Source of the DNA: Phycisphaerae bacterium
GTDB taxonomy: Bacteria; Planctomycetota; Phycisphaerae; SM23-33
Assembly: GCA_041946855.1 (NCBI GenBank)
Contig: JBHGBE010000005.1
Span: forward strand, 11,108 to 75,107
DNA length: 64,000 nt
Direction: 5' to 3'
Shown here: positions 19,249 to 60,750 of the stretch, in pieces
Layout: every line of letters begins with the position of its first letter
Numbering within the stretch: the stretch's first letter is position 1
Notes under the pieces: generated by a model
Told to the model about the DNA's origin: nothing
What the model saw: only the letters and a program-made list of their open reading frames with translations
Databases searched by the model: none
Translations under genes and position numbers: made by a program

Positions 19249-20355
19249 ATGCCTGCGAGCAATGACACACTGACGGCCAAGCTCGACGAACTGCACCGGC
19301 GCTACGCGCAGATCACGGAGCAGATGAACGACCCGGCCGTCGCGTCGGATGCGACGAAGATCGTCGCTCTGGCCAAGGAGCGGTCCAGGCTGGCCCGCAT
19401 AGTCGAGCCGTACATCAAGTACAAGGCCGTCGCCGCCCATCGTGACGAGGCGCAGGCAATACTCGACGATCCAGCCGGCGACGCGGACCTCAAGGCTATC
19501 GCGCGGGGCGAGGTCGATGACCTGAAGCACAAGGCCGAGGCGGCGCTGGACGAAATCAAGGGCCTCCTGGTCATGGTGGACGACGAGCAGATCGACTCGG
19601 TCGTGCTGGAGATCCGCGCGGGCACGGGCGGCGAGGAGGCGGCGCTATTCGCCGCGGACCTGGCCGGCATGTACAGGCGATACGCCGAGGGACACCGATG
19701 GAGCTTCGAGATACTCTCGGCCAGCCCGACGGACATGGGCGGCTTCCGCGAGCTCATCGCCAACATCAAAGGCCCCGGCGTATGGACCCACTTCGGTTAC
19801 GAGGGCGGCGGCCATCGCGTCCAGCGCGTGCCCAAGACCGAGGCTCAGGGGCGGATACACACTTCCGCCGCGACGGTGGCCGTCCTGCCCGAGCCGGAGG
19901 ACGTCGAGGTCAACATCAACTGGGAGAAGGACGTCGAGGAGTACACCAGCCGCGCCGGCGGCCCCGGCGGCCAGAACGTCAACAAGGTCGAGTCGGCCAT
20001 CCGCCTGGAGCACAAGCCCACCGGCATTACCGTGTCGATGCGCGATGAGAAGAGCCAGCACAAGAACCGCGCCAAGGCCAGGCGAATCCTGGCGGCCCGC
20101 GTGTACGAGCACATCCGCGGCCAGCAGTTGGCGGCCGAGGCCGCGGCCCGCAAGGCGATGATCGGCTCGGGCGACCGCTCGGAGCGCATCCGCACGTACA
20201 ACTTCCCGCAGAACCGCTGCACCGACCACCGGCTCAAGAGCGCCGGCTCCGAGGGCGCCAACTACAACCTCCAGCAGATAATGGCCGGCGACATGGACGA
20301 GCTGATCAACGCGCTGATCGCGCACGACAAGGCGCAGAGGCTGGCCAATCTCTGA
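19249..20355 (+). CDS. prfA: Peptide chain release factor 1
   Basis: GGQ motif ([24 protein letters not shown]). RF-1 PxT-type region. Start placed at the inner Met [11 protein letters not shown]. Confidence 0.9.
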
Positions 20356-20433
20356 TTGCAGATTGCGGATTGAACGCGCGCGAGCGGGTTGTGTCCTCCA
20401 ATCTGCAATCTACAATCTGCAATCTGCAATAGG
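20354..20433. repeat. Heptamer-arm inverted repeat element A (GATTGCAGATTGCGGATTG ... CAATCTGCAATCTACAATCTGCAATCTGCAAT)
   Basis: Starts on the prfA stop codon and ends 10 nt before the mazG-like start. Arms are tandem 7-mers. About 21-nt GC-rich loop. Confidence 0.7.
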
Positions 20434-20442
20434 ACCAATGCC

Positions 20443-20706
20443 ATGACCATCCGGGAGTTTCAGGACTTCATCTACAAACAGTACTACCCCACGGACTCCA
20501 ATCGCGGCACGCCCGCGACATTCCTGTGGTTCATGGAGGAGGTGGGCGAGCTGGCCTCAGCCCTGGCCGGCGACGATGAGCACAACAAGGAGGAAGAGTT
20601 CGCGGACGTCTTCGCGTGGCTTTGCACACTGGCCAACATCAACGGCGTGGACCTGGCCAAGGCCATCGAGAAATACACGGTGCGGGGGGTAGAAGGACAC
20701 AAGTGA
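20443..20706 (+). CDS. MazG-like nucleotide pyrophosphohydrolase (small MazG family)
   Basis: MTIREFQDFIYKQYY...FLWFMEEVGELASAL...EEEFADVFAWLCTLANINGVDL shows the EExxE/D MazG motifs. The ORF-track N-terminal extension (MCPPICNLQSAICN) is translated repeat DNA, so the inner Met is used. Confidence 0.75.
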   Translation: MTIREFQDFIYKQYYPTDSNRGTPATFLWFMEEVGELASALAGDDEHNKEEEFADVFAWLCTLANINGVDLAKAIEKYTVRGVEGHK

Positions 20707-20836
20707 TTTTCGATTGACGATTTCGATTGGCGATTGCTCAAAAAGAGAACCCGGCCCGTCTCTGGTTCACAAGACCAAAGACGGGCCGCGTCCTTGTAGT
20801 TCAATCGTCAATCGCCAATCGGCAATCGACAATCAG
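20705..20836. repeat. Heptamer-arm inverted repeat element B between convergent genes, with a nested GC hairpin
   Basis: Left arm gattttcgattgacgatttcgattggcgattgc. Right arm tcaatcgtcaatcgccaatcggcaatcgacaatcag. Centre contains CGGCCCGTCT...AGACGGGCCG. The arms overlap both stop codons. Confidence 0.7.
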
Positions 20837-23832
20837 CCTTTGAGGGCTTCTTCAATCATCTCCAGTATCTGCTTGCCCTGTCCTTCGGCGTCCTTCTCGA
20901 TTGACTTCTTGGCCGACTCCCTGGCCTTCTCCAGCAGCTTCTTGTCCCCGGTGGCCTTGCCGATCTTGTACTGGACCATGGCGGTCTTGTTCCACGAGTC
21001 GGCCAGTTCCGGATCGACCATGTTGATGTGGTCAGCCTGGCGGAGGGCCTCCTTGAAGTACTTGTCCTTGTCGGCCGGGGTCTCGGACTTGGCGGCCTTG
21101 CGGAGGTTGATGGAGGCCATCGCCTCGTAGGTGGAGGTCTCGTAGGGGTCGATGTAGAGCGTCTCGCGGTAGAACCGCAGGGCCTCGTCGTCCTGGTTGA
21201 GGGAGCGATAGATGTCGGCGATCTGCCGGGCGTAGTCGGGCTTGTTCATCGTGCGGCGGTGCAGCTCCAGCAGGTTGGGCAGGGCCTTGGCCGGCTGGCC
21301 GAGCTCCTTGTAGATCCTGGCGAGGTTCTCGTAGCTGTACGGGTCCAGCGGCTGGCGCTGCTTGTAGGTCTCGAGCGCAAGGATGGTCTCGGCCCAGGAG
21401 CGCTTCTCCATGTAGCACTGCGCCATCACACGCGGGGCGTAGATGGATGAGTGGTCCAGGTCCTCCAGGCGCTTGGCCATGCCGATGGCCTCGTCGTTCT
21501 TCTTGGCGGCGGCAAGGGCGGAGGCCATCGCGGCCAGGGCCTTGGTGCTGTTGGGGTCGATGTCCAGGGCCTTCTGCGCGTACTGCTGTGCGCGTGGCAG
21601 TTGGCCGATGGAAGCCAGCGCGATGGCCGCCTCGGACAGGGCGGCGGCGTCGTTGGGCCTGGCGTCCGCCTCGGCGACGGCCTTCTGCGCATCGGGCGGC
21701 GGATTGGGGTCGAAGTGCCACTCATCCTTCACCCACGCCTTGGCCCACTCGGCGAAGTCCTTGTCGAACTGCTCCTCGGTCGTGCCGAAGATGTCCTTGA
21801 TGACCTCCGCCTGGGTCTTGCCGGCGTTAAAGGCCTTGAGCATGTTGGCGACCGTGGGATGGTAGCCCTTCTTGACGTTGATGTACTCCAGTATCCACTC
21901 CGACTGTGCGTACGCCTGCTGGCGCTGCGCGGGCGTCTTGGGCCGGATGAATCCCCAGTCGAGGTCCTTGACGGGGATCAGCGTGTTCGTCCGCACCGCC
22001 TGCACCAGGAGCCTGACGTAGTTGTAGGCGGTCTTGTCGGGCTGCTGGGAGACGGCGCAGGCCTCGGTGAACCAGTGCGGGATGCGGTTCTGCGTGGCGG
22101 CCAGCGTGACCGAGTGCGTGTACTCGTGGCGGAGGACGACCGACCAGTTGTACGTCATGCTGTTGGCCACGTCCTTGCCGGGGGCGGCCAGGGCGATCAC
22201 GTTGCCGGTCGAGGCCCCCACCGTCGGCACCCACCCCTTTCCGCTGACCCGGACGGAGAACTGCGGCCCCGAGGGGAATATCTCGATGAGCGTCTTGTCC
22301 TTCAACTCGTAGTCGTAGTCGCCGCAGATTTCCTTGTAGATGCTCTCCATGTAGTCGCTGACCTGGTCCAGCAGGACCGAGTCGCGCTCGGTGTCGACCT
22401 TGACGATGAAGTGCTCGGTCTCCTTCACCGCGTACTTGGCCGGGTCGAGTATCTTCTCGACGAGGTTGTAGTAGTTGACCACGTCCTCGCGGAAGTCGTC
22501 GATGTCGTGGGCCTTCTTCAGCGCGACGGAGGCCTTGGCCTCATCGCCGGTCTGCATGTACATCAGGCCCAGGCCGGCCCACGGCTCGGCCAGCTCCGGC
22601 GCAAGCTCGGTGGCCTTGATGTAGTTCGGCTCTGCCTGCTTGAACTGCCGCCCGGCCACCAGCCAGTCGCCGATGGCCGTGTAGAGGCCGGCGTAGTTCC
22701 TGTTGATCTTATGCACCGCCTCGATATACGGCTTTGCCTTGTCGCCATGGCCCAGGCGCGTGTGGAGGGCCGCCATAAGGCTAAGCGCCTCCAGGTGGTT
22801 GGGGTTGACCTCCAGCGCCTTCTTAAGGACGCCCTCGACCTCGTCGAACTTGCGCCACTGCATCATGCACGTGGCCTTGAGCAGCATGGCCTCGACGTGG
22901 TTGGGGTTGATCGCCAGCGCCTGGTCGGACAGCTTGAGCACCGCCTCGAACTGGAACTGCGACAGGGCGGCCACGCCGTAGCCGACGAACACGTCGGGGA
23001 TCTTCTTGTTGAGGGCCTCGGCGAGCTTGAACTCGGCGATGGCCTGGTTTGGCCGGTGGTTGGACAGCAGGTACATGCCCGCCGCGACGTTGGCGGGCCA
23101 GTACTTCTTGTCCACGTTCATGTACGCTTCCTGGAGGTAGTTCTGGAGGATGTTCTCGGCCTGGTTGGAGGCCTTCTTGCCGCCAAGGACCACGTCGCGG
23201 TCCATGATCTGGCCGAGGGCCACAAGGCTCCGCGGGTCGCGGCGATAGGCGTCGGTGCGGATGACCTTGTCAATCGACTTGTAGACGGCCTTGGCCTCCT
23301 CTTTCCTGCCGACGACCTCCAGGGCCTGGCCGTGGGCGAAGATGGCCGGGGCCCAGTCGGGCTTCATCTCGTGGGCCTTTGTGGCGTGGTCCAGCGCCTC
23401 GTCGTACTTGCCGACGGCGCTGGTCAGCTCGTACATCAGGACATGCCAGGCGGCGTCCTTTGCGCCTTCGCCCTCGACGGCCTTGAGTGCCTCGATGGCC
23501 TCCTTGTACTTGCCCTCGATGGCCAGCGCCTCGGCCATGCCGATGGCGGCGCCCAGCGGCGACTTGGCCGCAAGCTTCTTGTACCCATCGACGGCCGCCG
23601 AGTAATCGCCCTTGGCATATAGGTCGTGGCAGGCATCGAGCGTGTCGGCCTTGGCGGTGGTGGGCGCGGGTTTGGTGGCCGGGGCGGATGATGTCGCCGG
23701 CGCCATGCCGGGGCCGGGCACGACAACGACCTTCGGCGTGGGCGCCGGGTCATCGGCAAGGCCGGCAGCGGGCCGGGAAAGCAGCATCGCCAGGGACAGA
23801 ACGGCGGCGGCAAGGAAGTGGCTGGTCTTCAT
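20833..23832 (-). CDS. Secreted TPR-repeat protein with embedded HExxH zinc-metallopeptidase-like motif
   Basis: Signal peptide MKTSHFLAAAVLSLAMLLSRPAAG. Many TPR units. VVLRHEYTHSV...HWFTEACA (HExxH plus a downstream Glu). Confidence 0.7.
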   Translation of the reverse strand: MKTSHFLAAAVLSLAMLLSRPAAGLADDPAPTPKVVVVPGPGMAPATSSAPATKPAPTTAKADTLDACHDLYAKGDYSAAVDGYKKLAAKSPLGAAIGMAEALAIEGKYKEAIEALKAVEGEGAKDAAWHVLMYELTSAVGKYDEALDHATKAHEMKPDWAPAIFAHGQALEVVGRKEEAKAVYKSIDKVIRTDAYRRDPRSLVALGQIMDRDVVLGGKKASNQAENILQNYLQEAYMNVDKKYWPANVAAGMYLLSNHRPNQAIAEFKLAEALNKKIPDVFVGYGVAALSQFQFEAVLKLSDQALAINPNHVEAMLLKATCMMQWRKFDEVEGVLKKALEVNPNHLEALSLMAALHTRLGHGDKAKPYIEAVHKINRNYAGLYTAIGDWLVAGRQFKQAEPNYIKATELAPELAEPWAGLGLMYMQTGDEAKASVALKKAHDIDDFREDVVNYYNLVEKILDPAKYAVKETEHFIVKVDTERDSVLLDQVSDYMESIYKEICGDYDYELKDKTLIEIFPSGPQFSVRVSGKGWVPTVGASTGNVIALAAPGKDVANSMTYNWSVVLRHEYTHSVTLAATQNRIPHWFTEACAVSQQPDKTAYNYVRLLVQAVRTNTLIPVKDLDWGFIRPKTPAQRQQAYAQSEWILEYINVKKGYHPTVANMLKAFNAGKTQAEVIKDIFGTTEEQFDKDFAEWAKAWVKDEWHFDPNPPPDAQKAVAEADARPNDAAALSEAAIALASIGQLPRAQQYAQKALDIDPNSTKALAAMASALAAAKKNDEAIGMAKRLEDLDHSSIYAPRVMAQCYMEKRSWAETILALETYKQRQPLDPYSYENLARIYKELGQPAKALPNLLELHRRTMNKPDYARQIADIYRSLNQDDEALRFYRETLYIDPYETSTYEAMASINLRKAAKSETPADKDKYFKEALRQADHINMVDPELADSWNKTAMVQYKIGKATGDKKLLEKARESAKKSIEKDAEGQGKQILEMIEEALKG

Positions 23833-24035
23833 GAGTTTCGATCCTCGTGTCAGTCTGCGCAACACCCAACCCGGGCGCATGGCCGCGCCCGCGGAATATT
23901 GTAACCCATCCTGAAGCATTCAACCAAGATTAACCGCCGCAAAGGGCGGCTATTGCAGGGAAATGCGCAAGACCGCGGGCCGCAGCCCGCCGGCGGCGAG
24001 CCACGGCCCGCTGTCCTGAAAGATGCGATCAGGCG

Positions 24036-24206
24036 TCAGCCTTCGCTGATCGCCTTGGAGGGGCACTGCTCGGCGCACTGCCCGCAGTCCACGCACGCAT
24101 CCGGGTCAATCGAGTACTTCTTCTCGCCTTCCTTGATCGCCTCGGACGGACAGACGTCCTTGCACGACCCGCAGGCGGTACACTCATCGCCGATCTTGTA
24201 GGCCAT
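24036..24206 (-). CDS. 2x[4Fe-4S] ferredoxin (56 aa). Not in the supplied ORF track.
   Basis: Reverse translation gives MAYKIGDECTACGSCKDVCPSEAIKEGEKKYSIDPDACVDCGQCAEQCPSKAISEG, with two CxxCxxCxxxCP motifs. Confidence 0.75.
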   Translation of the reverse strand: MAYKIGDECTACGSCKDVCPSEAIKEGEKKYSIDPDACVDCGQCAEQCPSKAISEG

Positions 24207-24330
24207 CGCTAGCTCCTTTGTGGTTGTTCAACGAAACGGGCCGGGCTGGCGTTCCCGGCCGGCTCGCTCTTCCGACATATTACGATTTTCCGGCCGAGCG
24301 GTTCAAGGCCATTTGTCGGCCCTCGCGCGG

Positions 24331-24376
24331 TCAATTTACAATCTGCAATCTGCAATCTACAATCGCCGAATCAATG
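24331..24376. repeat. Heptamer repeat half-element C (caatttacaatctgcaatctgcaatctacaatcgccgaatcaatgg)
   Basis: Same CAATCTG/CAATCTA units as element A. Sits in the divergent ferredoxin/thiF-like promoter region and contains the thiF-like ATG. A weak partner (acgattttccgg) lies about 50 nt upstream. Confidence 0.6.
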
Positions 24377-25162
24377 GCGAAAGACGGTCACAATCTCGGC
24401 CGGTACGAGCGGCAGATGGTCTTCGGCGGCTGGGGCCTGGCCCTTCAGAAGGAACTGGCGGCCAGGCGAGCGCTGATTGTGGGCGTTGGCGGGCTGGGGA
24501 GCTGGGCGGCGGAGCTGCTGGCGCGGGCGGGCGTGGGCTTCCTGCGGCTGGTGGATGATGACAAGGCCGCGCTGAACAATCTCCATCGCCAGGCGCTCTA
24601 CGACGAGGCGGATGCGGCCGAGGGCCTGCCCAAGGTCTTCGCGGCCGCCCGGCGGCTCAAGCGGATCAACTCGCAGGTGACAATCGAGCCTCGCGAGGAG
24701 CGGCTGGATAGGGACAACGTCGAGGAGCTTGCGGCCGGGGCGGATGTGATACTCGACGGCACGGATAACTTCGCCTCGCGGTTCATCATCAACGACTACG
24801 CGGTGAAGACCGGCCGGCCGTGGGTGTTCGCGGGCGTGGTCGGCGCCGAGGCGCAGACGATGACGATCATCCCCGGTCGCACGCCGTGCCTCCGGTGCAT
24901 CAGCGAGACGCCGCCGCCGCCGTGCGTCGATCCGTCATGCCGCGTGGCGGGGGCGCTCGGGCCGGCGGTAATGGCCGTTGCCGCGATTCAGGCGATGGAG
25001 GCCATCAAGATCCTCGCCGGGAAGCTCGACGAGGTAAGCCCGTACCTGGTCAAGTTCGACCTGTGGACCAACGGGTTCCAGCGGATCGACGCGGCCCGCG
25101 CGTGCGCCGGCGTGGATTGCCCATGCTGCAAACAGAGGCACTTCGAGTACCTGGAAAGTTGA
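24374..25162 (+). CDS. ThiF/MoeB-family E1-like adenylyltransferase
   Basis: Rossmann GVGGLGSWAAELLARAGVG. Conserved Asp/Arg residues. C-terminal Cys cluster (CxxC...CPCC). Confidence 0.8.
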   Translation: MAKDGHNLGRYERQMVFGGWGLALQKELAARRALIVGVGGLGSWAAELLARAGVGFLRLVDDDKAALNNLHRQALYDEADAAEGLPKVFAAARRLKRINSQVTIEPREERLDRDNVEELAAGADVILDGTDNFASRFIINDYAVKTGRPWVFAGVVGAEAQTMTIIPGRTPCLRCISETPPPPCVDPSCRVAGALGPAVMAVAAIQAMEAIKILAGKLDEVSPYLVKFDLWTNGFQRIDAARACAGVDCPCCKQRHFEYLES

Positions 25163-25186
25163 GGTAGTCAGTCTGAGGACAGTTCC

Positions 25187-25501
25187 ATGGGGGACGGGTA
25201 CAATACAGGAATGATGACCCAGGAAGATATCCGTCAAAGACGAGACGCAATCCTTGAGATTGCCCGCCGTTACGGAGCGCACGATGTGCGGATCTTCGGG
25301 TCGGTGGCGCGGGGGGACGTAACGGCAGAATCAGACTTGGATCTGATTGTCAGGTTCGAGGCAGGCCGTTCACTTCTGGACCACGGCGGGCTCGTCATGG
25401 ACCTGCGCGAACTTCTCGGAATCAGGGTTGATGTGATTGACGAAGACGGAATGCGGGAGAGATTCAGAAACCATGTCTTGAAGGAGGCGGTTCCTCTATG
25501 A
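25187..25501 (+). CDS. mntA: MNT nucleotidyltransferase antitoxin (HepT/MNT type VII toxin-antitoxin)
   Basis: IFGSVARGDVTAESDLDLIV matches the minimal nucleotidyltransferase GS...DxD motif. 4-nt overlap with the downstream HEPN gene. Confidence 0.8.
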   Translation: MGDGYNTGMMTQEDIRQRRDAILEIARRYGAHDVRIFGSVARGDVTAESDLDLIVRFEAGRSLLDHGGLVMDLRELLGIRVDVIDEDGMRERFRNHVLKEAVPL

Positions 25502-25845
25502 GGCCAGATCGCCTGCTGCTTCAGGACATCCTCGAAGCAATCAACGAGGTGATCGACGCCACACCCGCCGATATGGCCGCGTTCGATGCCAACAAATTCG
25601 TTCGCTCGCACGTCCTGCGTCATATACAAATCATCGGGGAAGCGACTTGGCGGCTTTCCTCGCAGGTCAAGGACAAGCACCTGGAAGTGCCTTGGAAGAA
25701 GATCGTTGGCATGCGCCATGTGCTGGTCCACGATTACTTCGAGGTCAACTGGGCGCGTGTCTATGAAACCGCTAAGGTGCATGTGCCGCCGCTCAAACCG
25801 ATCATTGAGTCAATACTGGCATCTCTCGGGCCGGAACCAGAATGA
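25498..25845 (+). CDS. hepT: HepT HEPN-domain toxin (DUF86)
   Basis: RHVLVHDY Rx4HxY HEPN motif. DUF86 size and layout. ATGA overlaps on both ends. Confidence 0.8.
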   Translation: MRPDRLLLQDILEAINEVIDATPADMAAFDANKFVRSHVLRHIQIIGEATWRLSSQVKDKHLEVPWKKIVGMRHVLVHDYFEVNWARVYETAKVHVPPLKPIIESILASLGPEPE

Positions 25846-26726
25846 GTGGATCCAGGCGTCGGTTCGTCGACCTTCACACCCACAGCACCGCATCCGACGG
25901 CCAGCTCCGGCCGGCGGAACTGATCGCCCTGGCGGAGCGGAAGCACCTGGCGATGGTCGCCCTGACCGACCATGACACGATGGACGGCCTGGCCGAGGCG
26001 CGGGCGGCAGCCGCGGGGTTTCCGGGCCTGCGGTTCGTGGGCGGCATCGAGGTCTCGGCCAGGTTCCCCACGGGCACGCTTCACATACTCGGCCTGGGCG
26101 TCGATGAGCGCTCGCCGGCCATCGCGAGCCTTTGCCGGCAGCTTGTGGCCGCACGTGATTCACGCAACCCCAGGATCATCGCGCGCCTGCGCGAGCTGGG
26201 CATAGCCATCGAGATGGAGGATGTGCGGGCCGTCGCGGGCCACGGCCGTATCGTCGGCCGGCTGCACATCGCCGAGGCCCTGCGGCGCAAAGGGCATGTC
26301 AAAACGACGCAGGAGGCGTTCGACACTCTTATCGGCAATGGCCGCGCGGCTTACGTTGACAAGGAACGGCTTTGGCCGCGCCAAGCCATCGAGGCGATCC
26401 GCGCGGGCGGTGGAGTTGCGGCCCTGGCTCATCCGCCCCAGCTTCGGTGCGCGAACCGCGCGGAGCTTGAGCGTGTCCTCCGCTCGCTAATCCGCGACGG
26501 CCTGGGCGGCATCGAGGTCTACCACAGCGAGAACACGCCTGAGCAGACCCGCCTCTACCTCGACCTGGCCCGACGGTTCAGGCTGGCCGTCACGGGCGGC
26601 TCGGACTTCCACGGCCCCGCCAAGCCCGAGGCCCGCCTGGGCATTCCCCGCGTGCCCCTGGCGGCCATCGCGGAGCGCATCGCCTTCCCGCGGGCCGGTG
26701 GCGACGCGAAAGGCCGTGTCACCTAA
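25842..26726 (+). CDS. PHP-domain phosphoesterase (TrpH/YciV-like)
   Basis: VDLHTHSTASDG...ALTDHDTM...GGSDFHG PHP metal-binding motifs. Confidence 0.8.
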   Translation: MSGSRRRFVDLHTHSTASDGQLRPAELIALAERKHLAMVALTDHDTMDGLAEARAAAAGFPGLRFVGGIEVSARFPTGTLHILGLGVDERSPAIASLCRQLVAARDSRNPRIIARLRELGIAIEMEDVRAVAGHGRIVGRLHIAEALRRKGHVKTTQEAFDTLIGNGRAAYVDKERLWPRQAIEAIRAGGGVAALAHPPQLRCANRAELERVLRSLIRDGLGGIEVYHSENTPEQTRLYLDLARRFRLAVTGGSDFHGPAKPEARLGIPRVPLAAIAERIAFPRAGGDAKGRVT

Positions 26727-26750
26727 GGCCCAAAAAACCGCGAGCGCGCC

Positions 26751-26783
26751 CTTGCCGAAACGGTTGGGCGCGTTATAATAACG
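26751..26783 (+). promoter_or_regulatory. Candidate sigma-70-like promoter (TTGCCG-N16-TATAAT) with palindrome CGTTAT-A-ATAACG overlapping the -10 box
   Basis: Seen directly. Located about 180 nt upstream of the PEP-CTERM gene start. Confidence 0.4.
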
Positions 26784-26958
26784 ACGCTTCGACCTCCGCT
26801 CTGGAAGCGGCGGATTTCGTTGCAAGTCGGCGGATTCGGGACGTCCGCTCACGCTCCCGGGTCTGCAAGCCCGCCCGGGCGAGTTTCCCTGACAACCATT
26901 TCTTTCTATCGAGCGCCCTTTCTTGATTCGTTCGCTGGGCCAGCGAAAGGAGAGCCCT

Positions 26959-27849: not shown

Positions 27850-27950
27850 GACACGGAAGGTGACCACCTTCCGCGCGGCAAGAACCCAGTCCCGGCTGGC
27901 CGGGACTGGGTTGGGAAGGAAGCGGCAGCGCCTCTGATTCTGTCGGTCGG

Positions 27951-28565
27951 CTACATCTTGCGGACGACCCCCACGACGACGCCTTGTATGTTGATCTGGC
28001 CCGGCTCGACGTAGATCGGCTTGAACTCCGGGTTGGCCGGCTGGAGGCGGATGCGGTCCTTCTCCTTGAAGAACCGCTTAAGTGTGGCCTCGCCGTTGGC
28101 CAGCAGGGCGACCACGGTGTCGCCGTTCTTCGGGTTGCTGCGCTTCTCGCAGATGACCAGGTCGCCGTCGCGGATGTGGTCGTCGATCATGCTCTGGCCG
28201 GTCACCTGGAGCGTGAACTTCTCGCCCTGTCCCGCGAACATCTCCTCAAGGTCGAGCATCTGGTGCTGCTCGATGGCCTCTATGGGCTGTCCGGCCGCGA
28301 TCCGGCCGACAAGCGGGAACCTCGTCGCACGCTCATCCTCAAACTTGAAGCTGGGCGACACCCGCAAAGAGCGCGCCTTGTGCTTGCCGCCGCGAAGGAT
28401 GAGGCCCTTTCTTTCGAGCGCCCCGACGTGCTCGAACACGGTGACCTTGGTAAGGCCGAGATGATCGCCCATCTCCTGCATCGTCGGCGAATAGCCGTAG
28501 CGATGGCGGGTATCCCGTATGAACCGAAGGATCTCCAATTGCCTGGGCGTAACCGTAATCTCCAT
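27951..28565 (-). CDS. lexA: LexA repressor
   Basis: wHTH N-terminus. S24 peptidase Ala-Gly cleavage site (RIAAGQP). Ser...Lys dyad (VTGQSM...LKRF). Start placed at MEITVTP. Confidence 0.85.
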   Translation of the reverse strand: MEITVTPRQLEILRFIRDTRHRYGYSPTMQEMGDHLGLTKVTVFEHVGALERKGLILRGGKHKARSLRVSPSFKFEDERATRFPLVGRIAAGQPIEAIEQHQMLDLEEMFAGQGEKFTLQVTGQSMIDDHIRDGDLVICEKRSNPKNGDTVVALLANGEATLKRFFKEKDRIRLQPANPEFKPIYVEPGQINIQGVVVGVVRKM

Positions 28566-31314: not shown

Positions 31315-31345
31315 GTGGGTCAAGGCCCCACGTCTTCCGGGCGCT

Positions 31346-53523: not shown

Positions 53524-53708
53524 CGGAAAGAAAAAACTTGCAGGGATGCAAGGGATACAAAGGATGATGAAGTTGAAGAGACAGGCAGTGCAATGCGGCC
53601 CGGCGGCCGAATCGCGACACCGGGCGCCTGTGGGGCGCTGCCGCGGCTTGCTTGCTTTCAATTGTCTGAATCCCCTGCATCCCCTTTATCCCTGCTGAGT
53701 TTCTGTTG
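53524..53708. repeat. Heptamer-arm inverted repeat element G (GCAGGGA/TGCAAGG type)
   Basis: Left arm cttgcagggatgcaagggatacaaaggatgatgaag immediately after the TPR-lipoprotein stop. Right arm aatcccctgcatcccctttatccctgc. GC-rich centre with its own hairpin. Confidence 0.7.
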
Positions 53709-53719
53709 GAGAAGGAAGC

Positions 53720-54472
53720 ATGTCAGGCCATTCTCACTGGGCTAAGATCAAGCGTTACAAGTCGGCCACGGACGCCAAGCGCGGCCGCGCGTGGAGCAAG
53801 CTCGCGCGCCGCATCATCGTGGCCGCCAAGCACGGCGGCGGCAACCCCGACGACAACCTTTCCCTGCGCTATGCCATCGACGACGCCCGCGCGGAGAACA
53901 TGCCCAACGACACGATCAAGAACGCCATCAAGAAGGGCACGGGCGAGCTCGGGGCGGTCAACTACGAGAACATCACCTACGAGGGCTACGGCCCCGGCGG
54001 CGTGGCGTACCTGGTCGAGTGCCTCACCGACAACCGCAGCCGGACCGCGCCGGAGATGCGCAAGATATTCGAGCGGGCCGGCGGCCAGATGGGCCCGGTC
54101 AACTGCGTGGCCTGGATGTTCGACAAGAAGGGCGTCTTCGCCATCACCTCCGACAAGGCCGACGAGGACACGCTGATGGAGATCGCGCTTGAAGCCGGGG
54201 CCGACGACGTGACGCGCGATGGCGACCTCTTCGAGATCACCTGCTCGCCGGCCGCGTTCAACAAGGTCAAGGAGGCGCTGGCCGCCCGCAAGATCGAGAC
54301 CGTCTCCGCGCAGATCGCCATGCAGCCCAGGAACACGGTCCCCGTCGGCCCCGACAAGGCCGCTCAGGTCCTGGGCCTGGTCGAGGCGCTGGAAGAGCAC
54401 GAGGACGTGCAGAACGTCTACGCCAACTTCGACATACCCGAGGAGGTGCTGGCGAAGGTGGGAGAGAAGTAG
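53720..54472 (+). CDS. yebC: YebC/PmpR-family transcriptional regulator
   Basis: MSGHSHWAKIKRYKSATDAKRG...KHGGGNPDDNLSLRYAIDDARAENMPNDTI. Confidence 0.9.
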   Translation: MSGHSHWAKIKRYKSATDAKRGRAWSKLARRIIVAAKHGGGNPDDNLSLRYAIDDARAENMPNDTIKNAIKKGTGELGAVNYENITYEGYGPGGVAYLVECLTDNRSRTAPEMRKIFERAGGQMGPVNCVAWMFDKKGVFAITSDKADEDTLMEIALEAGADDVTRDGDLFEITCSPAAFNKVKEALAARKIETVSAQIAMQPRNTVPVGPDKAAQVLGLVEALEEHEDVQNVYANFDIPEEVLAKVGEK

Positions 54473-54516
54473 CGCGACTGGCACCTGGTCCGTGCGACGG
54501 AGGCGAGACTGACGCC

Positions 54517-55185
54517 ATGCGTCATCTGGCAGTAGGAGACGTTCACGGATGCTTCACAGCCCTCAGGACCTTGGCAGCCTTTGTCCCTCTTGGGTCGTCA
54601 GACGTTCTTGTCATGCTCGGAGACTACGTTGACCGAGGCCCTGACTCCTGCGCTGTTCTGGACTGGCTGATAGACCGTGAGCGCCGCGGCACCTTGGTCG
54701 CCTTGCGCGGCAATCACGAGTTGATGATGCTCAACGCGAGGGAGGATCCGGAAGCCTTTCGACGATGGATGGAGTACGGCGCGGCGCCGGCCCCGGCTTC
54801 ATATTCACCGGTGAGCGACAGCGGGCGATTGCAGGACGTGCCGGACTCGCACTGGAAGTTCCTGGAGGAACGAACACGGCCGTGGTATCAAACAGATGCG
54901 CACTTCTTCGTACACGCGAATGCTTTTCCAGGTGTCCCTTTGGAGGAACAGCCTGATCTAATGCTGTACTGGGAGCTTTGGGGCGACCCTTCGCCGCACG
55001 AATCAGGCAAGGTCATGGTCTGCGGCCACACGCCTCAGAGATCAGGCGTTCCGAAGGACATCGGTCATGCCGTCTGCATCGACACGTTGGCATGGGACGG
55101 CGGTTGGCTGACGTGTCTTGATGCTGCATCGGGCGCATACTGGCAGGCCAACCAGAAGGGCGAGACTCGTCGATCCCGACTGTAG
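54517..55185 (+). CDS. Calcineurin-like metallophosphoesterase (PrpE/ApaH-like Ser/Thr phosphatase)
   Basis: GDVHGC, GDYVDRG and GNHE motifs. Confidence 0.8.
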   Translation: MRHLAVGDVHGCFTALRTLAAFVPLGSSDVLVMLGDYVDRGPDSCAVLDWLIDRERRGTLVALRGNHELMMLNAREDPEAFRRWMEYGAAPAPASYSPVSDSGRLQDVPDSHWKFLEERTRPWYQTDAHFFVHANAFPGVPLEEQPDLMLYWELWGDPSPHESGKVMVCGHTPQRSGVPKDIGHAVCIDTLAWDGGWLTCLDAASGAYWQANQKGETRRSRL

Positions 55186-55348
55186 TGGCTCCGGCCTCAC
55201 TGACCTTGTGACGGAGGATTCGGCGCTCACGACAGTTCGCACGCCGATTCAGGCATCAAGAACAACAGCACACCTTATTTTCGATTTCCGGCAAAATCGC
55301 AAATAACGCCCTTGCTTATTTTCGCGGCTGTAGGTAGGCTTTCCAGGC

Positions 55349-56509
55349 ATGACGACGCGCCAACAACCGCCCGGCAGGTTCGTGCGTTGCGCGGGAGGGG
55401 TCCAGGCGTTCGTTCCGGCCCCCTTGCCTCCCGAGGTCAACTGGACGCCCAGGCTGATGAGAGCGCTCTCCGACGCCGACCGCCTCCTGGGGCAGCTTGC
55501 CGGGGAAGGCCGGGGGCTGCCCAACCCGCACCTGCTCATGCGGCCGTTCGTCAAGCGCGAGGCCGTGCTTTCCAGCCGGATCGAGGGCACTCAGGCCACG
55601 CTGGGCGAGCTGCTTGCCGCCGACGCCGGGGCCGCCGTGGACCGCAGCCCCGAGGACCTGCGCGAGGTCGCCAACTACGTGGCCGCCCTGGACCACGGGA
55701 TCAAGCGGCTCAAGAACCTTCCGCTCTCGCTGCGCCTGGTAAAAGAGCTCCACGCCAAGCTCATGCACGGCGTTCGGGGCGGCGTGGCGACGCCCGGCGA
55801 GTTCCGCCGCAGCCAGAACTGGATCGGCCCGCCCGGCTGCACGCTGAGCAACGCCAGCTATGTGCCTCCGCCGCCGGATGAACTGATGGTGTGCCTTGGC
55901 GACTGGGAGAAGTTCCTGCACGATCGCTCGCTGCCGCCGTTGGCGCAGGTGGCCCTGATGCACTACCAGTTCGAGGCCATTCACCCGTTCCTGGACGGCA
56001 ACGGGCGCATCGGCCGGTTGCTGATCACGCTCTTTCTTGTCGAGCGCGGGATACTGCCCACCCCGCTGCTCTGCCTCAGCGCGTTCTTCGAGGCGACCCG
56101 GCGCGAGTACTACGACAGGCTGTCCGCTGTTACCGCACGGGCGGCCTGGGGCGGCTGGGTTGAGTACTTCCTTAACGGCGTCGCGCGAATGTCCGAGGAC
56201 GCCCTGGCGAGGGCCGAGAGGATCAACGCCTTGACCGTTCAGTGGCGCCGGAAGGTGGCAGGCGCGGCGTCCAGGACGCCCTCGCAACTGGTTGACCTGC
56301 TGGCCGAGAACCCATATTGGACCATCAACAAGGCGGCCCAGCGCCTCGGCGTGGCGTTCACGACAGCCCAGAGGGCCGTGGAGCGGCTGGAGAGTCTGGG
56401 CATCCTGAAGCGCGCGACCGATTCCAGGCGGGGACGAGTGTTCTGCGCGGCGGCGATAATGGACATACTGGACGAGCCCGCGAACCTTACGCCCCTGCCA
56501 CCCCTGTAG
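55349..56509 (+). CDS. Fic-family protein (AMPylation/Doc-like) with C-terminal winged-helix domain
   Basis: HPFLDGNGRIGR canonical Fic motif. Typical N-terminal alpha-inhibitory/adaptor region. Confidence 0.85.
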   Translation: MTTRQQPPGRFVRCAGGVQAFVPAPLPPEVNWTPRLMRALSDADRLLGQLAGEGRGLPNPHLLMRPFVKREAVLSSRIEGTQATLGELLAADAGAAVDRSPEDLREVANYVAALDHGIKRLKNLPLSLRLVKELHAKLMHGVRGGVATPGEFRRSQNWIGPPGCTLSNASYVPPPPDELMVCLGDWEKFLHDRSLPPLAQVALMHYQFEAIHPFLDGNGRIGRLLITLFLVERGILPTPLLCLSAFFEATRREYYDRLSAVTARAAWGGWVEYFLNGVARMSEDALARAERINALTVQWRRKVAGAASRTPSQLVDLLAENPYWTINKAAQRLGVAFTTAQRAVERLESLGILKRATDSRRGRVFCAAAIMDILDEPANLTPLPPL

Positions 56510-56536
56510 AACGCGGTCGGGCAGCGTCGACCGAGC

Positions 56537-57535
56537 CTAGTCGTTCCTTCTGACCGCCAGGGCCGTGGGGTATCCGATCATCTCGCCCAGGCTCACATCC
56601 GCGTCGGTGAACGGCTGTTCGCCCTTGCGGTAGAGGATGACCACGCCGATGAGTTCGCGGTCGGCCGGCACGAGCGGGATGGCCAGGATGCTCACGCCCA
56701 CGAGGCGCCGGCGGATGGCCTCGGCGAACAGGTGCGCATCCTCCGTGGCGTCCATGAGCAGGCACTTGGGGGCGGCAAGCAGCATGTCGACGACGGGCTT
56801 GGACAGGGCCTCGCAGAACTCCAGCGAGTCTGGCACGGGCACGCCGAACCGCCCGGCGATGCGGAGGCGGGCGCTGGCGTCGCAGACCATCGCCACGCCG
56901 AAGACCGTGCCCGACTGCTTGACGAACAGGCGGAAGACTGCCTTGAAGACGTCGTCGTCGTTGGCCGCGCGGACGAGCTCGTTCTGGAAGGCCATCGCCT
57001 GCTTCTGGATGGCGAACTGGCCGCTGAGGTCGCGGAAGGCGGCCGTCAGGTCGGCGCACGCGCCGGAGACCTGGCGGGCGAGTGTCTTCTTCTGGATGTT
57101 CGACTGGCGGGCGAGGCCTCGCAGGCGGCGGGCGCGCGCGGCCCTTCGGCGGCGCGTGCGGCCGTGCGCGATCTCCGCGCGGATGGCGGCCGTCAGGCGG
57201 TCGAGGTCCAGCGGCTTGGTCATCAGCTCCACGGGCCGCCGGCGCGACGCCTCGGCCATGCTCGCCGGGTCGCCCCGCCCGGTTATCACGACGGCCGGGA
57301 CATCCGCGCCGCTGTCGCGAAGGCGGTCGATCACGTCCAGCCCCGTGCAGTCGCCCAGGCGCAGGTCGGTCACGAGGAAGTCCGGGCGCTGGCGTGCGGA
57401 GATGTCCAGGGCGGCCTGCCCGCTGCCGGCGGCCGTCACGCGAAGGCCGCTCGCGCCCAGCGCATCCGTCAGCAGCTCGCGGATGTCGGGCTCATCGTCC
57501 ACGACGAGCACGTGTGGTTGGGCAGTCTCGCTCAT
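56537..57535 (-). CDS. Response regulator (REC) with C-terminal GAF-like domain
   Basis: VLVVDDEPDIRELL...FLVTDLRLGD receiver motifs. Confidence 0.7.
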   Translation of the reverse strand: MSETAQPHVLVVDDEPDIRELLTDALGASGLRVTAAGSGQAALDISARQRPDFLVTDLRLGDCTGLDVIDRLRDSGADVPAVVITGRGDPASMAEASRRRPVELMTKPLDLDRLTAAIRAEIAHGRTRRRRAARARRLRGLARQSNIQKKTLARQVSGACADLTAAFRDLSGQFAIQKQAMAFQNELVRAANDDDVFKAVFRLFVKQSGTVFGVAMVCDASARLRIAGRFGVPVPDSLEFCEALSKPVVDMLLAAPKCLLMDATEDAHLFAEAIRRRLVGVSILAIPLVPADRELIGVVILYRKGEQPFTDADVSLGEMIGYPTALAVRRND

Positions 57536-59868
57536 CGGTCCTGTTCCTTCTTCGATGGCTCATCGGCCGCGGGCATCGCGACGAAGACCTCTGTTCCCGC
57601 GCCGGGGGCGGATGTCACGCGTATCGTGCCGCCGTTGATCTCGACGAGCCGCTTGGCCTTCGCCAGGCCCAGGCCCCTGCGCCGCCCGGCAGGCCGGTTG
57701 GAGTAGAACGGCGTAAAGGCGCTGGCCAGCGTCTGCTCGTCCATCCCGGCGCCGTTGTCCTCGACGCACAGCACGACATGTCCCTTGGCCCGGTCCGCCG
57801 CGGCGGACAGGCGAATCTTCGGCTCGGGCCCGCCCGCGGCGGCCGCGTTGCGAAGAAGCTCGACTAACACCGTCTCAAGCTGGCCGCGGTCAGCACGAAT
57901 CGGCGGCGCGGCCTCCTCTATATCTATATCGACCGACGCGGACGCGGCTTGAGCATCGCCGCCCGCCGCGAGGGACGCCGCGGCCGACCGGAGAAGCTCG
58001 CGCGGGTCTATGGACTGCGGCGATGGCGCCGCGGGCGCCGCGCATTCCATCAGCTCCGAGATGATGTCGCTGATCCGCTGCGCCTGCTCGACGATGATCG
58101 CCCAGACCTTCTTCTGCTCGGGCTGGTCCGCACGCTGGGCCATCAACTGCGCCCGCCCTGAGATGATCGCCAGCGGGTTATTGAGCTCGTGGGCCGCGCC
58201 GGCGGCCATCTCGCCGATGGCCGTCAGCGTCTTTGCCTCGGCCAGCGCGTCGCCGGCGGCCGCCAGGACCTGCGACGCACCCGTGAGCTGCTCGTTCAGG
58301 CGAACGGCCCGCGACCGCGCCTGCACCAGCGACAGCGCCATGGCCATCGCCGCGACGATCCTCGCCCATGAATCATCCGCGCACCGCGCCGGCCCCTGGG
58401 CGGCCGACGGAATCAGGACGCCGCCCGCCCACTCGCCGGCGCAGATCAAGGGCTGGTGAACGCACGCGGCCAGGTCGATCCAGTCGGCCATGTCCTCCCC
58501 GCCGGCAAGCAGCGCGGCCATCGCATCGGGGGCCGGACCGGCCGTCCGCGGCGCTGTCAGCGAATCTCGCGGCCCGGCGCACGCCAGCGTCCGCCAGGAT
58601 GGATTCTCGCCGCCGTCGTGCCGCACGGCCAGGATGACCGGCTCGCCGGTATCGTCGAACGCGTAGGCGACGACCGGCGAGGCGAGGGAGGGCCGCAGGT
58701 CCAGCGCGGCCGCCGTCGCGGCGGCGATCCGGCCGACGACCTCGGCCACGCTCGACTGGCCCGTGAGCGACGAGGCGAACTCGCCCAGCTCTCGAAACGC
58801 CTTGGCCTCGGCGGCCGCGCGGGCGGCGCCGCGGCGGAGATGCTCGTTCATCCGTACTAACTCCGCCGAGGCGCGGGCGATCAACTTTTCGCGTCCTTGC
58901 GGCGCGGCCTCGATGTGCCCCAGGCGCTCGGCCGCCTCGGCGACGGCCGCGGCCGCGGATGCCCGGATTTCGTCCACTTCGCCAGGCTCCATGCCCAGCG
59001 CCTTCGCCCATTCATCGACGGCGCGAGGGAAAGTGTAGTTGCCGGAGAAGCCGATCCCCGCCCGACGGGCGATGGCGTCCGCCAGGGCGATCACATCGAC
59101 CAGGCGGCGATCAGCGACGGAGCCGGGAACCCCATCCGCCGGCTGGTGGTGCAGCCATATCACCGCCTCGAGGGCCGCGCCGAGCCGCCACATCTCGGCC
59201 AGGCGCCGCCCGAAGACGCAGTGGTCCGCGCCGATGATCTTCCGCTCGCTGTCCGCGATGGCCTGGCACTGCTGGGCGTCGGCGGCGATCGCGCGGGCGT
59301 AGCTCTTGGGCATCAGCTCATCCATCGCCAGCTTGCCGACGTCGTGCAGCAGGCCGCAGGTGAACGCCTCCATCGGGTCGATCGGCAGGCCGATCCGCTC
59401 GGCGAGCAGCTTCGCGGCGTGGGCCGTCGCAAGGCAATGCTTCCAGAACTCCACGCGGTCAAGGCGGCTTCCGGGCGGGGAGGCATTATCGAGGCCGGAC
59501 AGGCCGGCCGTCAGCGCGGCCGCTCGCACGGCTTCAGGTCCGAGTTTCGAGGCTGCATCGGCGGCGGTGCGGGCCGAGTCGGGAGCGGCCTGATTGGCCT
59601 GCCGGACCAATCCGGCCGTCATGGCCATATCCAGTACCGCAAGCTCGACAGTCTGTCGCGCGGCCGTGCCTTCGGCGGCCCAATCCCCTTCCGGCCGCAG
59701 CGCAAGTTCCAGCAGCCGGCCAGCGATTGCGGGCAGCACGGGAAGGCGGTCCAGCCGGCGCAGGGCGAGGTCCAACTGCCCGTCGCTGATGGACCCTCCG
59801 ACGCGGGCCGCCGCGCCTGGGGCCCGCGGCCCGGCACGCGCGGCTTGGTTAGCCTTCCTCCGGCTCAT
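57532..59868 (-). CDS. HDOD-domain sensor histidine kinase
   Basis: HDOD (GLLHDVGKLAM). GAF-like middle region. HisKA (AAHELNNPLAIISGRAQL). HATPase_c (DNGAGM...GLGL). ATGA overlaps with both neighbouring genes. Confidence 0.8.
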   Translation of the reverse strand: MSRRKANQAARAGPRAPGAAARVGGSISDGQLDLALRRLDRLPVLPAIAGRLLELALRPEGDWAAEGTAARQTVELAVLDMAMTAGLVRQANQAAPDSARTAADAASKLGPEAVRAAALTAGLSGLDNASPPGSRLDRVEFWKHCLATAHAAKLLAERIGLPIDPMEAFTCGLLHDVGKLAMDELMPKSYARAIAADAQQCQAIADSERKIIGADHCVFGRRLAEMWRLGAALEAVIWLHHQPADGVPGSVADRRLVDVIALADAIARRAGIGFSGNYTFPRAVDEWAKALGMEPGEVDEIRASAAAAVAEAAERLGHIEAAPQGREKLIARASAELVRMNEHLRRGAARAAAEAKAFRELGEFASSLTGQSSVAEVVGRIAAATAAALDLRPSLASPVVAYAFDDTGEPVILAVRHDGGENPSWRTLACAGPRDSLTAPRTAGPAPDAMAALLAGGEDMADWIDLAACVHQPLICAGEWAGGVLIPSAAQGPARCADDSWARIVAAMAMALSLVQARSRAVRLNEQLTGASQVLAAAGDALAEAKTLTAIGEMAAGAAHELNNPLAIISGRAQLMAQRADQPEQKKVWAIIVEQAQRISDIISELMECAAPAAPSPQSIDPRELLRSAAASLAAGGDAQAASASVDIDIEEAAPPIRADRGQLETVLVELLRNAAAAGGPEPKIRLSAAADRAKGHVVLCVEDNGAGMDEQTLASAFTPFYSNRPAGRRRGLGLAKAKRLVEINGGTIRVTSAPGAGTEVFVAMPAADEPSKKEQDR

Positions 59869-60434
59869 TTCCTGATGAGTTTCAAGATGCGCTCGATGAC
59901 GGTGGCGATGTTGAACGGCTTGCGGATGAAGTCATCCGCGCCGGCCTTCTTCAGGTCCTCAATCTCCGCGGGGCTGGCCACGCCGGAGATGATGATCACC
60001 TTCGTGCGGGACAGGTCCGGGTTCGCGCGGATGGTCCGGCACACCTCGTTGCCGTTGATGTCAGGCAGCTTGAAGTCGAGGATGACCACGTCGGGCAGCA
60101 GCTTCTCCGTCAGTATGCCCGCCTGGTAGCCGCTCTGCGCGGTGGCGACCTCGAACCGTCCATCGCTCGTCAGGGCGTCGACGAAGATCTCGACGATCTG
60201 CTTCTCGTCGTCCACCACCAGCACGCTGATCTTGCTGTTCTCCAGCCCGCCGGTGGGGATGTTGTGCTCCTTCATGAACTTCACAAGGGCGTCGTACGGA
60301 ATCCTGCGGAACTTGCTGCCCGGCACGCGGAAACCGCCGATCTTCCCGTCGTCGAAGCACCGGATGATGGTCTGCTGCGAAAGTTTGCACATCTCCGCCG
60401 CCTCGCCCGTCGTGTACACGGCCTTGTGACGCAC
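59865..60434 (-). CDS. Excisionase/MerR-type HTH fused to a receiver domain (DNA-binding response regulator)
   Basis: YTTGEAAEMCKLSQQTIIRCFDDGKI (HTH_17-like). ISVLVVDDEK...VVILDFKLPDINGNEV receiver. Confidence 0.7.
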   Translation of the reverse strand: MRHKAVYTTGEAAEMCKLSQQTIIRCFDDGKIGGFRVPGSKFRRIPYDALVKFMKEHNIPTGGLENSKISVLVVDDEKQIVEIFVDALTSDGRFEVATAQSGYQAGILTEKLLPDVVILDFKLPDINGNEVCRTIRANPDLSRTKVIIISGVASPAEIEDLKKAGADDFIRKPFNIATVIERILKLIRK

Positions 60435-60610
60435 GTTTGTGCTCCTTTTCTGTTAGTCCCGGCAGCGCCGAGACTTGACCCGCATCTCTAATCGACCCAT
60501 TCTCAAGCCGACTTAATTTACCTAATCGCTACAGTTTACCACATCTGCGCAAATTAACACGTGAAAAGAGAGATAAAGTAGGAGATTTGGGACCGGAATC
60601 AAGAACTACA

Positions 60611-60750
60611 GCGTTGCTTCGTTACTTCGTTAACTCGTTACTTCGTACATGTGTGGCCCCAGGAGTAACCGTGCGGGCCGAACAGAGCCGGGCGAGCCAC
60701 GAATCAGCCAAGTAACGAAGCTACGAAGCAACGAGGCAACGAGTCAACGC
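60611..60750. repeat. Heptamer-arm inverted repeat element H (CGTTACTT type)
   Basis: Left arm gcgttgcttcgttacttcgttaactcgttacttcgtac. Right arm caagtaacgaagctacgaagcaacgaggcaacgagtcaacgc, ending 1 nt before the stop of the 60752..63442 gene. Confidence 0.7.

Follow-up and report, generated by a model that had tools for sequence, protein, structure and literature searches.

Degenerate heptamer arrays, often in inverted pairs, at gene ends in a Phycisphaerae genome

A 64,000-nt stretch of chromosome from a Phycisphaerae bacterium (contig JBHGBE010000005.1, positions 11,108 to 75,107; referred to below as the window, with coordinates counted from its first nucleotide) contains recurrent arrays of short, imperfect tandem units at the ends of genes. 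Degenerate tandem arrays populate the non-coding DNA beginning at stop codons in this Phycisphaerae clade, and spacers that hold a hairpin have the same unit family inverted on both flanks, the whole spacer forming one long imperfect stem. The arrays are best explained as lineage-typical long simple-sequence repeats (SSRs) with units of 7-9 nt, and not as a discrete mobile element. We favor, with moderate confidence, a reading in which slippage-generated repeats lengthen 3' hairpins, and these, once transcribed, would serve as 3'-end barriers or partial terminators.

The original prediction for this DNA described six full inverted-repeat elements (A, B, D, F, G and H) whose arms are tandem short units, and one half-element (C). 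The tandem-unit inverted arms were confirmed at all six by reading of the loci and by folding. Tandem Repeats Finder also reported an array in each named arm, with the exception of both arms of F, which are too degenerate, and an inverted-repeat search recovered A, the centre of B, D and H. The six paired elements are as follows.

20354-20433, + strand: element A; left arm GATTGCA GATTGCG GATTG (20354-20372), GC-rich centre of 26 nt (20373-20398), right arm CAATCTG CAATCTA CAATCTG CAATCTG CAAT (20399-20433; 4.6 copies of CAATCTR).
20705-20836, no strand assigned: element B; left arm 20705-20736 (GATTGNC, 4-5 copies), right arm 20801-20835 (NCAATCG, 5 copies).
31194-31314, + strand: element D; left arm of GAATGNN units, right arm of CATTNTG units.
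47740-47951, + strand: element F; left arm 47740-47797 of degenerate GAATKNN units, right arm 47889-47951 of CATTC-type units.
53524-53708, + strand: element G; 8-9-nt GCAGGGAT units at 53540-53585, reverse-complement units at 53660-53693.
60611-60750, - strand: element H; 8-nt CGTTNCTT units on both arms.

A census of the window gives 17 arrays, 12 of which make up the six inverted pairs while 5 stand singly; all but one (16/17) are non-coding. At least five unit families occur within the 64 kb (GATTGNN, GAATGNN, GCAGGGAT, CGTTNCTT and GTAAGCA). With one fixed detector applied to the window and to simulated sequence alike, 8 period-7 tandem arrays were counted against 0.68 +/- 0.88 expected (maximum 3) from 40 second-order Markov simulations, an excess of about 12-fold, and 4 period-8 arrays against 1.2 expected from second-order Markov simulations. 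Each of the six paired elements folds into one long imperfect hairpin, with z-scores of -4 to -10 for the folding energy relative to mononucleotide shuffles. Stem length of the paired spacers is 80-210 nt, the base being AT-rich and repetitive and the top GC-rich, and the predicted stems run for 25-60 bp with periodic mismatches. The period-7 arrays and the paired hairpins are a genuine, statistically supported feature. Most array arms have about 32-54% GC and most lack G-tracts, against a window background of 65-66% GC; the elements had been described as AT-richer than a 68% background, which is correct for the arms and too high for the background.

Element A fills the spacer between prfA and mazG. 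The TGA stop of prfA (20353-20355) overlaps its first unit, and its right arm is followed immediately by AGGA, the Shine-Dalgarno sequence of mazG (minimum free energy (MFE) -35.5, z -5.2). Element B touches two convergent stops, as originally proposed: its left arm follows the TGA of the small MazG-like gene (mazG), and its right arm enters the TCA (that is, TGA) stop at 20833-20835 of the convergent TPR gene 20833-23919(-). The fold of B has a z-score of about -10, and its centre (20752-20788) consists of a 15-bp GC-rich hairpin and then a T-tract on the minus strand, an arrangement, enclosed by the arms, that looks like a canonical terminator of the TPR gene. Element D is a continuous quasi-palindrome directly after the TGA stop of the DUF192 gene; its left arm has a 14-nt higher-order period, and its + strand folds at -43.2 kcal/mol vs -33.5 kcal/mol for the - strand. 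Element F begins at the TGA stop of rbfA (z -5.1) and has a GC-rich centre of about 90 nt with a hairpin of its own. Element H is predicted to fold with z -4.1, and only 1-2 nt separate the end of its right arm from the stop codon (60752-60754) of gene 60752-63442, which lies on the minus strand.

Element G lies between the TAG stop (53521-53523) of a TPR gene and yebC (53720), and consists of an A-tract, GCAGGGAT units, a GC-rich centre, reverse-complement units and a T-rich tail (z -5.4/-6.1). The stop-abutting placement claimed for the full elements stands for all six, for G by virtue of the predicted stem, which begins at the stop itself; its arrays start 17 nt past the TAG. At A and G the ribosome binding site of the next cistron follows within 0-15 nt and leaves no room for a promoter, and to judge from this layout both would behave as intercistronic stems rather than operon ends. 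Reading of each locus found no U-tract after the stem at A, D, F or H. The suggestion that the elements are 3' structures is upheld by the long stems at stops, the centre of B and the tail of G; as canonical intrinsic terminators most of them do not qualify, given the four that lack a U-tract. The left arm of G (53540-53585) also contains three evenly spaced AGGGA/AAGGA motifs; GGA motifs of this kind are bound by CsrA/RsmA-type proteins.

Arms are unequal in unit number (2.7 units on the left vs 4.6 on the right in A), and some arrays have higher-order periods of 13-14 nt. Variation is concentrated at 1-3 positions of the unit, with a core of 4-5 nt kept. Thirty GATTG-type units, aligned by anchoring on the core, which makes the invariance of the core partly circular, give the consensus R-A-T-T-G-N-[A/C] with C12 T9 A5 G4 at position 6. 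An unanchored test for one hypervariable position per unit was mostly non-significant for individual arrays and gave a combined p of ~0.03, so that such a position is suggestive only. In B no covariation is seen between the arms at the variable positions, and mismatches fall on the N of GATTGNC; the complementarity of the arms would therefore come from the shared core and not from compensatory change. As the original prediction held, units are shared while the rest differs. Searches with blastn-short matched units of A with C and with an array in a PP2C phosphatase gene, and units of B with arrays in two relatives (L082 and L168), and GAATG units occur in both D and F; the centres showed no similarity to one another, to the window or to the relatives' loci in that search. 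Rfam covariance models at the gathering threshold gave no match at any element, the sole match in the window being nhaA-I at 34230-34283.

Arrays occur at 11 of the ~35 gene 3' ends that have a spacer of at least 15 nt, and start 0-17 nt from the stop. A TGA stop lies inside the first unit (TGATTG, TGAATG or TGAGAAT) at 9 of these 11 ends, while TGA is the stop at 9 of the 24 ends without arrays (Fisher p = 0.027, with classes set after inspection of the data). Plain GC-rich hairpins directly follow the stop at most array-free ends (10891, 18104, 43316, 26923/27951, 55349/56537), so that hairpins abutting a stop are the local norm and do not set the arrays apart. The window is ordinary chromosomal DNA from a metagenome-assembled genome, and the genes that flank the arrays are housekeeping or regulatory: rpmE, prfA, mazG, a TPR protein gene, thiF/moeB, maf, a DUF192 gene and a PP2C phosphatase gene, together with nusA, infB, a DUF503 gene, rbfA, hisG, a large TPR protein gene and yebC.

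The single arrays, and one hairpin with a single unit per arm, are listed here.

24332-24366, + strand: array C; single CAATCTR array without a partner arm, in a divergent spacer.
32266-32305, + strand: PP2C array; CAATCNN units in frame (...STIGNLQSTI...) within the PP2C/SpoIIE phosphatase gene 31346-32596.
15219-15255, + strand: single array GTAAGCG GCAATCA GTGAGCA GTAATCG GTAAGCA with a 7/14-nt period, overlapping the TAA stop of gene 11695-15222.
63470-63500, - strand: single array of period 8 (TGA TTGGAC GATTCACC GATTAACG GATTAGC), from the TGA stop of gene 63501-63977(-).
4398-4418, - strand: single array GCAATTT GCAGTTT GCATTCC, 14 nt past the TGA stop of the GGDEF/HD gene 4433-6718(-).
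46956-46981, + strand: single-unit hairpin TGAATGCC-loop-GGCATTA at the stop of gene 46470-46958; the unit is GAATGCC, as in F.

Array C, listed earlier as a half-element, ends 8-10 nt before the ATG (24374) of the ThiF/MoeB gene. It is a single array and sits at a start codon, 10 nt upstream of it, rather than at a stop. The PP2C array is probably the copy "E" that was cited without coordinates. It constitutes a 6-7-residue loop insertion, about the length of three heptamer units, which is missing from 14 of the 15 closest homologues and from one solved homologue. Further degenerate traces reported at 29975, 55283 and 18838 are weak. Both CAATC arrays contain promoter-like matches of 10/12: C reads TTTACA-N17-TACAAT (24335-24363), and the PP2C array reads TCGACA-N17-TACAAT (32276-32304), near the sigma-70 consensus. 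The match in C, ~10 nt upstream of the ATG, would give a nearly leaderless mRNA. This promoter reading was not built on, as AT-rich arrays in a GC-rich genome score in such scans.

The prfA 3' region was compared in relatives with 56-80% RF1 identity, the nearest at 80%; the closest representative genomes are 58-66% identical in ThiF, and an RF1 metagenome scan gave only three loci above 65% identity. Loci L082 (79% RF1 identity) and L168 (77%) keep the prfA-mazG synteny and have GATTG/AATTG/GAATG arrays that start at or within the stop, and GATTG/AATTG-type arrays are found at this spacer in three genomes (the window, L082 and L168). Because the L082 array supplies the last three codons of RF1 and the stop, arrays can remodel protein C-termini. 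RF1 usually ends in ...LANL*; three extra residues are present in L082 (TID*, 1655-1669) and in L168 (TLE*, 11104-11119). At the same 3' end, inverted 8-9-nt arms enclose a centre of 170 nt in L084 (74%), L085 (71%) has GGGGAT/ATCCCC arms, and L095 (56%) has about 30 tandem ACACAGG/ACACAAG copies directly after the prfA stop, with a 14-nt alternation and an MFE of 0. Other palindromes stand there in L081 and L083, the latter also with an 11-nt unit in three copies. In L095 (9094-9282, 9695-9721) the ACACAGG arrays are followed by a gene and then by a CTTGAGT array in roughly reverse-complement orientation; judged by eye from its translation, the gene product resembles a four-helix-bundle protein of the 23S rRNA intervening-sequence type.

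Elsewhere in the relatives, L168 has an inverted GGCATTAN pair filling a co-directional spacer (1911-2028), an inverted GAATGAC pair after an ECF sigma gene (5558-5707) and an inverted ATCGGTTG pair in a divergent spacer (6423-6560). In L083 a TCAATGN pair occupies exactly the interval between convergent stops (17065-17177), and an array of 10 CGGTCNNN units closely precedes a start codon (4579-4644); L170 shows the same paired architecture with other units (19546-19800). The block nusA-infB-DUF503-rbfA-hyp-hisG-TPR-yebC is conserved in L169 and L170, and as far as hyp in L171, which ends earlier. The TPR-yebC spacer holds GCAGGGAT units in the window, an inverted pair GATTCGC ... AATCCGA in L170, and a plain hairpin with a T-rich array in L169. 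None of L169, L170 and L171 has a counterpart of element F at the orthologous rbfA-hyp junction, where 64 nt separate the two genes in L169 and the genes of L171 overlap; sequence homology is lost precisely at the borders of F. Orthologous spacers are not identical in sequence, which the original prediction had named as a point to check: at family-level distance, array length and unit differ between genomes at the same loci. Related genomes have the array habit in common, while its units, lengths and presence turn over.

Metagenome-assembled genomes (MAGs) of Pirellulales contain perfect heptamer arrays as well, two of them apparently inside uvrA, and most non-planctomycete loci are without any. 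In one Pirellulales MAG (L005), perfect CACTCTC arrays lie inside the apparent uvrA coding sequence (7580-7601 and 7767-7801), and an AGTGGAG ... CACTCTC inverted pair surrounds GAGGGGN arrays (15903-16071). These L005 arrays extend the heptamer habit to another planctomycete order.

Under the favored reading, replication slippage or short tandem duplication would generate the arrays, heptamers being a favored unit size in many bacteria, and duplications would act on each arm separately. Arrays that spread to the coding boundary would make the stop codon part of the first unit. The arms, transcribed together with the upstream gene, would pair into a stem that tolerates gain and loss of units, because pairing is possible in several registers. 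Such a stem could serve as a 3'-end barrier to exonucleases, protecting the upstream mRNA, and as a partial terminator where a U-rich tail follows. Stepwise tandem duplication is indicated by the unequal arms, the 13-14-nt periods, the in-frame insertion in the PP2C gene and the single-unit hairpin at 46956-46981, and RNA-level selection on the stems is plausible.

A number of observations weigh against this reading. Only four of five elements fold better on the sense strand of the upstream gene, and wobble-type mismatches number 18 on the sense vs 12 on the antisense strand. The L082 array has no significant fold (z 0.0), nor do the ~30 ACACAGG copies of L095 fold at all by MFE, and C, like arrays in L168 and L083, lies in a divergent or 5' spacer. 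GATTG occurs at 5 window loci, and both GAATG and GATTG are found again in L082 and L168; plain local slippage predicts neither the recurrence of a core at unlinked loci and across genomes nor variation confined to 1-3 positions. Element F, a gain of ~210 nt that three relatives lack, has a unique 90-nt centre for which slippage alone does not account. Since the recurrence of the core, the confined variation and the centre of F are left unexplained by slippage, the binding-site and insertional readings discussed below stay alive at low probability.

A purely neutral origin is the serious rival, one that we regard as possible but doubtful. A high rate of 7-11-nt tandem duplication in the clade would let arrays accumulate under weak selection, in spacers up to the stop codon and in tolerant protein loops, and the pairs would be a by-product of stem duplication or fold-back template switching that adds nothing beyond a pre-existing hairpin. 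The spread of arrays over all spacer types and into coding loops, the arrays of L095 and L082 without a fold, the turnover of unit and architecture at orthologous spacers (TPR-yebC) and the lack of covariation between the arms of B all agree with such an origin, as does the fact that no regulatory role was found for the comparable repeats of Xanthomonas (PMC4692102). It fits poorly with the placement of 12 of 17 window arrays in six inverted pairs, with a 4-5-nt core that is kept while 1-3 positions vary, with the persistence of a core family at prfA-mazG across genomes whose RF1 is 77-79% identical to that of the window, and with AT-rich arrays that stand out from a 66% GC background. That the elements are ordinary Rho-independent terminators with stems long by chance is very improbable. 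They do resemble such terminators in being GC-rich stem-loops directly past a stop; the centre of B has a stem and T-tract, G has a T-rich tail on both strands, and canonical terminators are used in the window, for example after rpmE (19167-19190). Unlike them, the elements have stems of 25-60 bp with periodic mismatches, four of six are without a U-tract, several are intercistronic (A and G with the next ribosome binding site so close behind), and terminator-like matches were not enriched in the two regions scanned (15000-34999 and 45000-64000).

The original prediction offered a REP/BIME- or RPE-like selfish family, and a broader version of that idea is a miniature mobile family (MITE, REP/REPIN or ERIC-like) that targets stops and has the repetitive arms as its terminal inverted repeats. 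It could draw on the absence of F from the orthologous junction in three relatives, on the presence of one unit at the unlinked loci A, C and the PP2C array, and on the abutment of elements to TGA stops; we nevertheless consider it very unlikely. The centres are unique, the units of the arms differ between elements, and the arms of one element are unequal. A search of centres and full elements with blastn-short found no conserved 20-40-nt palindrome in near-identical copies of the REP/BIME/REPIN kind, and the combination of terminal inverted repeats, target-site duplication and shared internal sequence that marks MITEs was not found either. No flanking direct repeats or target-site duplications were seen on reading the element ends, which was done without a dedicated scan, and a Pfam-type scan of 40 window proteins, from 64 kb of the genome, revealed no transposase or RAYT families. 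A MITE- or REP-type copy-and-paste family was rejected on the uniqueness of the centres: the arrays are not copies of one element, nor do they make up a new mobile-element class. A further reading, which we regard as unlikely, takes the arrays as binding sites for a protein that recognises DNA or RNA sequence-specifically, with one subunit per unit and inverted blocks bracketing a site as in heptad-iteron systems; they would serve regulation, nucleoid organisation or termination coupling. It is consistent with the conserved core R-A-T-T-G followed by a hypervariable position, with a core common to several genomes and with single arrays just upstream of start codons (C; L083 4579-4644), and there are known proteins with contiguous heptads as binding sites, in either direct or inverted orientation, for example in the pSM19035 omega/parS system (PMC9499535) and among the SARP regulators (PMC5930380). 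However, at least five unrelated cores (GATTG, GAATG, GCAGGGA, CGTTNCTT, GTAAGCA) in 64 kb would need many proteins, no candidate binding protein was linked to the arrays, and the clustering of variation at a single position reaches only marginal significance. About equally improbable is a clade-wide cis code of G-A-W-T-G-core heptads phased from UGA, whose dedicated reader, a protein or an RNA, would couple translation termination to the formation of mRNA 3' ends or to mRNA decay, or else a specific error-prone slippage that writes arrays with one hypervariable junction position per unit. Either would explain the recurrence of the core at unlinked loci and across genomes (RF1 77-80%), the confined variation and the over-representation of TGA.

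Heptamers of the cyanobacterial STRR kind were reportedly described by Mazel et al. in 1990. The arrays reported here are best filed as a variant, in a new phylum, of the heptameric repeats of Xanthomonas and Nostoc, which are their closest described counterpart. In Xanthomonas, GGGAATC repeats form ~185-186 arrays per genome, 89-93% of them intergenic (Rehm et al. 2015, PMC4692102). Their unit combines a conserved core with variable positions, (GGGANTN)n; the arrays lie on average 28 nt from the upstream open reading frame (ORF) vs 160 nt from the downstream ORF; 70-75 convergent inverted pairs are able to form stem-loops; the same loci differ in length and sequence between two species; and the authors did not find a regulatory role (PMC4692102). 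Nostoc PCC 7120 has GGGGAYT and several heptamer families, which are unexplained (PMC4692102). The window arrays resemble those of both genera in their 7-nt tandem units with a core and variable positions, ~90% intergenic location, nearness to the upstream ORF end and convergent pairs. They differ from those of Xanthomonas in having at least five unit families per 64 kb instead of one dominant, G-rich, quadruplex-capable unit per genome, and in units that are mostly AT-rich and not quadruplex-prone, G and the relative's locus L097 being G-rich exceptions. They differ from both in that the first unit often includes the TGA stop, that the arms flank a GC-rich hairpin, and that the phylum is Planctomycetota. 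Of the features of heptamer SSRs, the tandem excess, the intergenic and 3'-end bias and the convergent pairs are all found in the window; a single dominant G-rich unit is not. The original statement that the family is not a described one is accordingly too broad, as this architecture has been published, and holds for the phylum as far as the literature searches go: they returned nothing relevant on heptamer or simple-sequence repeats in Planctomycetota, and the only related planctomycete remark found was of over-represented G-patterns in Isosphaera.

Other repeat classes are more distant. Heptamers are the commonest unit of long SSRs in prokaryotes, with polymerase slippage as the proposed origin (Mrazek 2007, as summarised in PMC4679880 and PMC4060949). 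The window arrays are like such long SSRs (5-11-nt units) in favoring heptamers, in their sporadic occurrence across lineages and in their intergenic bias, and are unlike them in that the surveys describe direct arrays and not stop-abutting inverted pairs; the tables quoted there do not single out Planctomycetes. The TAACTGA repeats of marine Beggiatoaceae occur in 2-6 copies at many intergenic sites and sometimes inside ORFs, with a suspected post-transcriptional role (MacGregor 2015, PMC4679880). Those are one unit, almost all direct (with only one inverted set) and close upstream of start codons, whereas the window has many units, most arrays paired and most just downstream of stops. REP, BIME and REPIN elements of proteobacteria (PMC3116915, PMC3733652) are likewise imperfect palindromes, transcribed and extragenic, that lie between cistrons and at the 3' ends of genes, and roles in mRNA stabilisation and termination have been proposed for REPs in the latter source. 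The window elements most likely work in the manner proposed for REPs. REPs, however, have a conserved 20-40-nt sequence in many copies, a GTAG/CGTC head and a cognate RAYT transposase; the window elements have no conserved full-length sequence, their arms are tandem 7-8-mers, and no RAYT was among the 40 proteins scanned.

Heptamer SSRs are abundant in several bacterial lineages, and the window adds a distant phylum with the same habits. New here are the several unit families per genome, the stop codon in the first unit, the arm-enclosed terminator (B), the lineage-specific gain (F) and the in-frame coding insertion. If the stems are 3'-end barriers or terminators, they would account for the marking of transcript ends in a GC-rich genome in which U-tract terminators are few. 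If the arrays are neutral, they would mark an unusual replication-slippage regime, and arrays that reach into stops and coding loops would be a practical hazard for the assembly of planctomycete MAGs and for gene-calling.

Some units of planctomycete loci (L011 1-72, L012 1114-1133, L004 1979-2003 and L097 5800-5834) resemble units of other phyla. GTGGTCA resembles the Calothrix STRR unit TTGGTCA, and AGGGATT resembles GGGAATC/GGGGATT of Xanthomonas and Nostoc. AGATAGG, a rotation of GATAGGA, resembles the Chloroflexus unit GATAGRA (PMC6749651). These resemblances may reflect coincidence or a shared sequence preference.

The nhaA-I riboswitch match on the + strand (34230-34283) scores 47 bits vs a gathering score of 37, and lies at the 5' end of ORF 34198-36084, which encodes PTS EIIA-2 and octopine dehydrogenase domains. 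An opposite-strand ORF (33027-35330) that overlaps this region has no Pfam match and is probably spurious.

The single array at 15219-15255 is followed by an unrelated inverted repeat (15260-15375) between convergent glycoside-hydrolase-like genes, with 45-nt arms of 87% complementarity and a 26-nt loop. It has GGGACGCG-type motifs in common with a stop-abutting hairpin at 11619-11675 and may belong to a separate GC-rich palindrome family. Other repeated GC-rich palindromes occur at gene ends in the relatives (L081 4375-4445, L083 11105-11330, L168 9880-9975 and L169 7595-7700), with the motifs GCAGGCGAGACGCCTGC, GGCATGGTCAKCC and GGGCGCCGTGGTTGC...GCAACCACGCCC. These look like genome-specific REP-like families in the same niche as the heptamer-armed stems.

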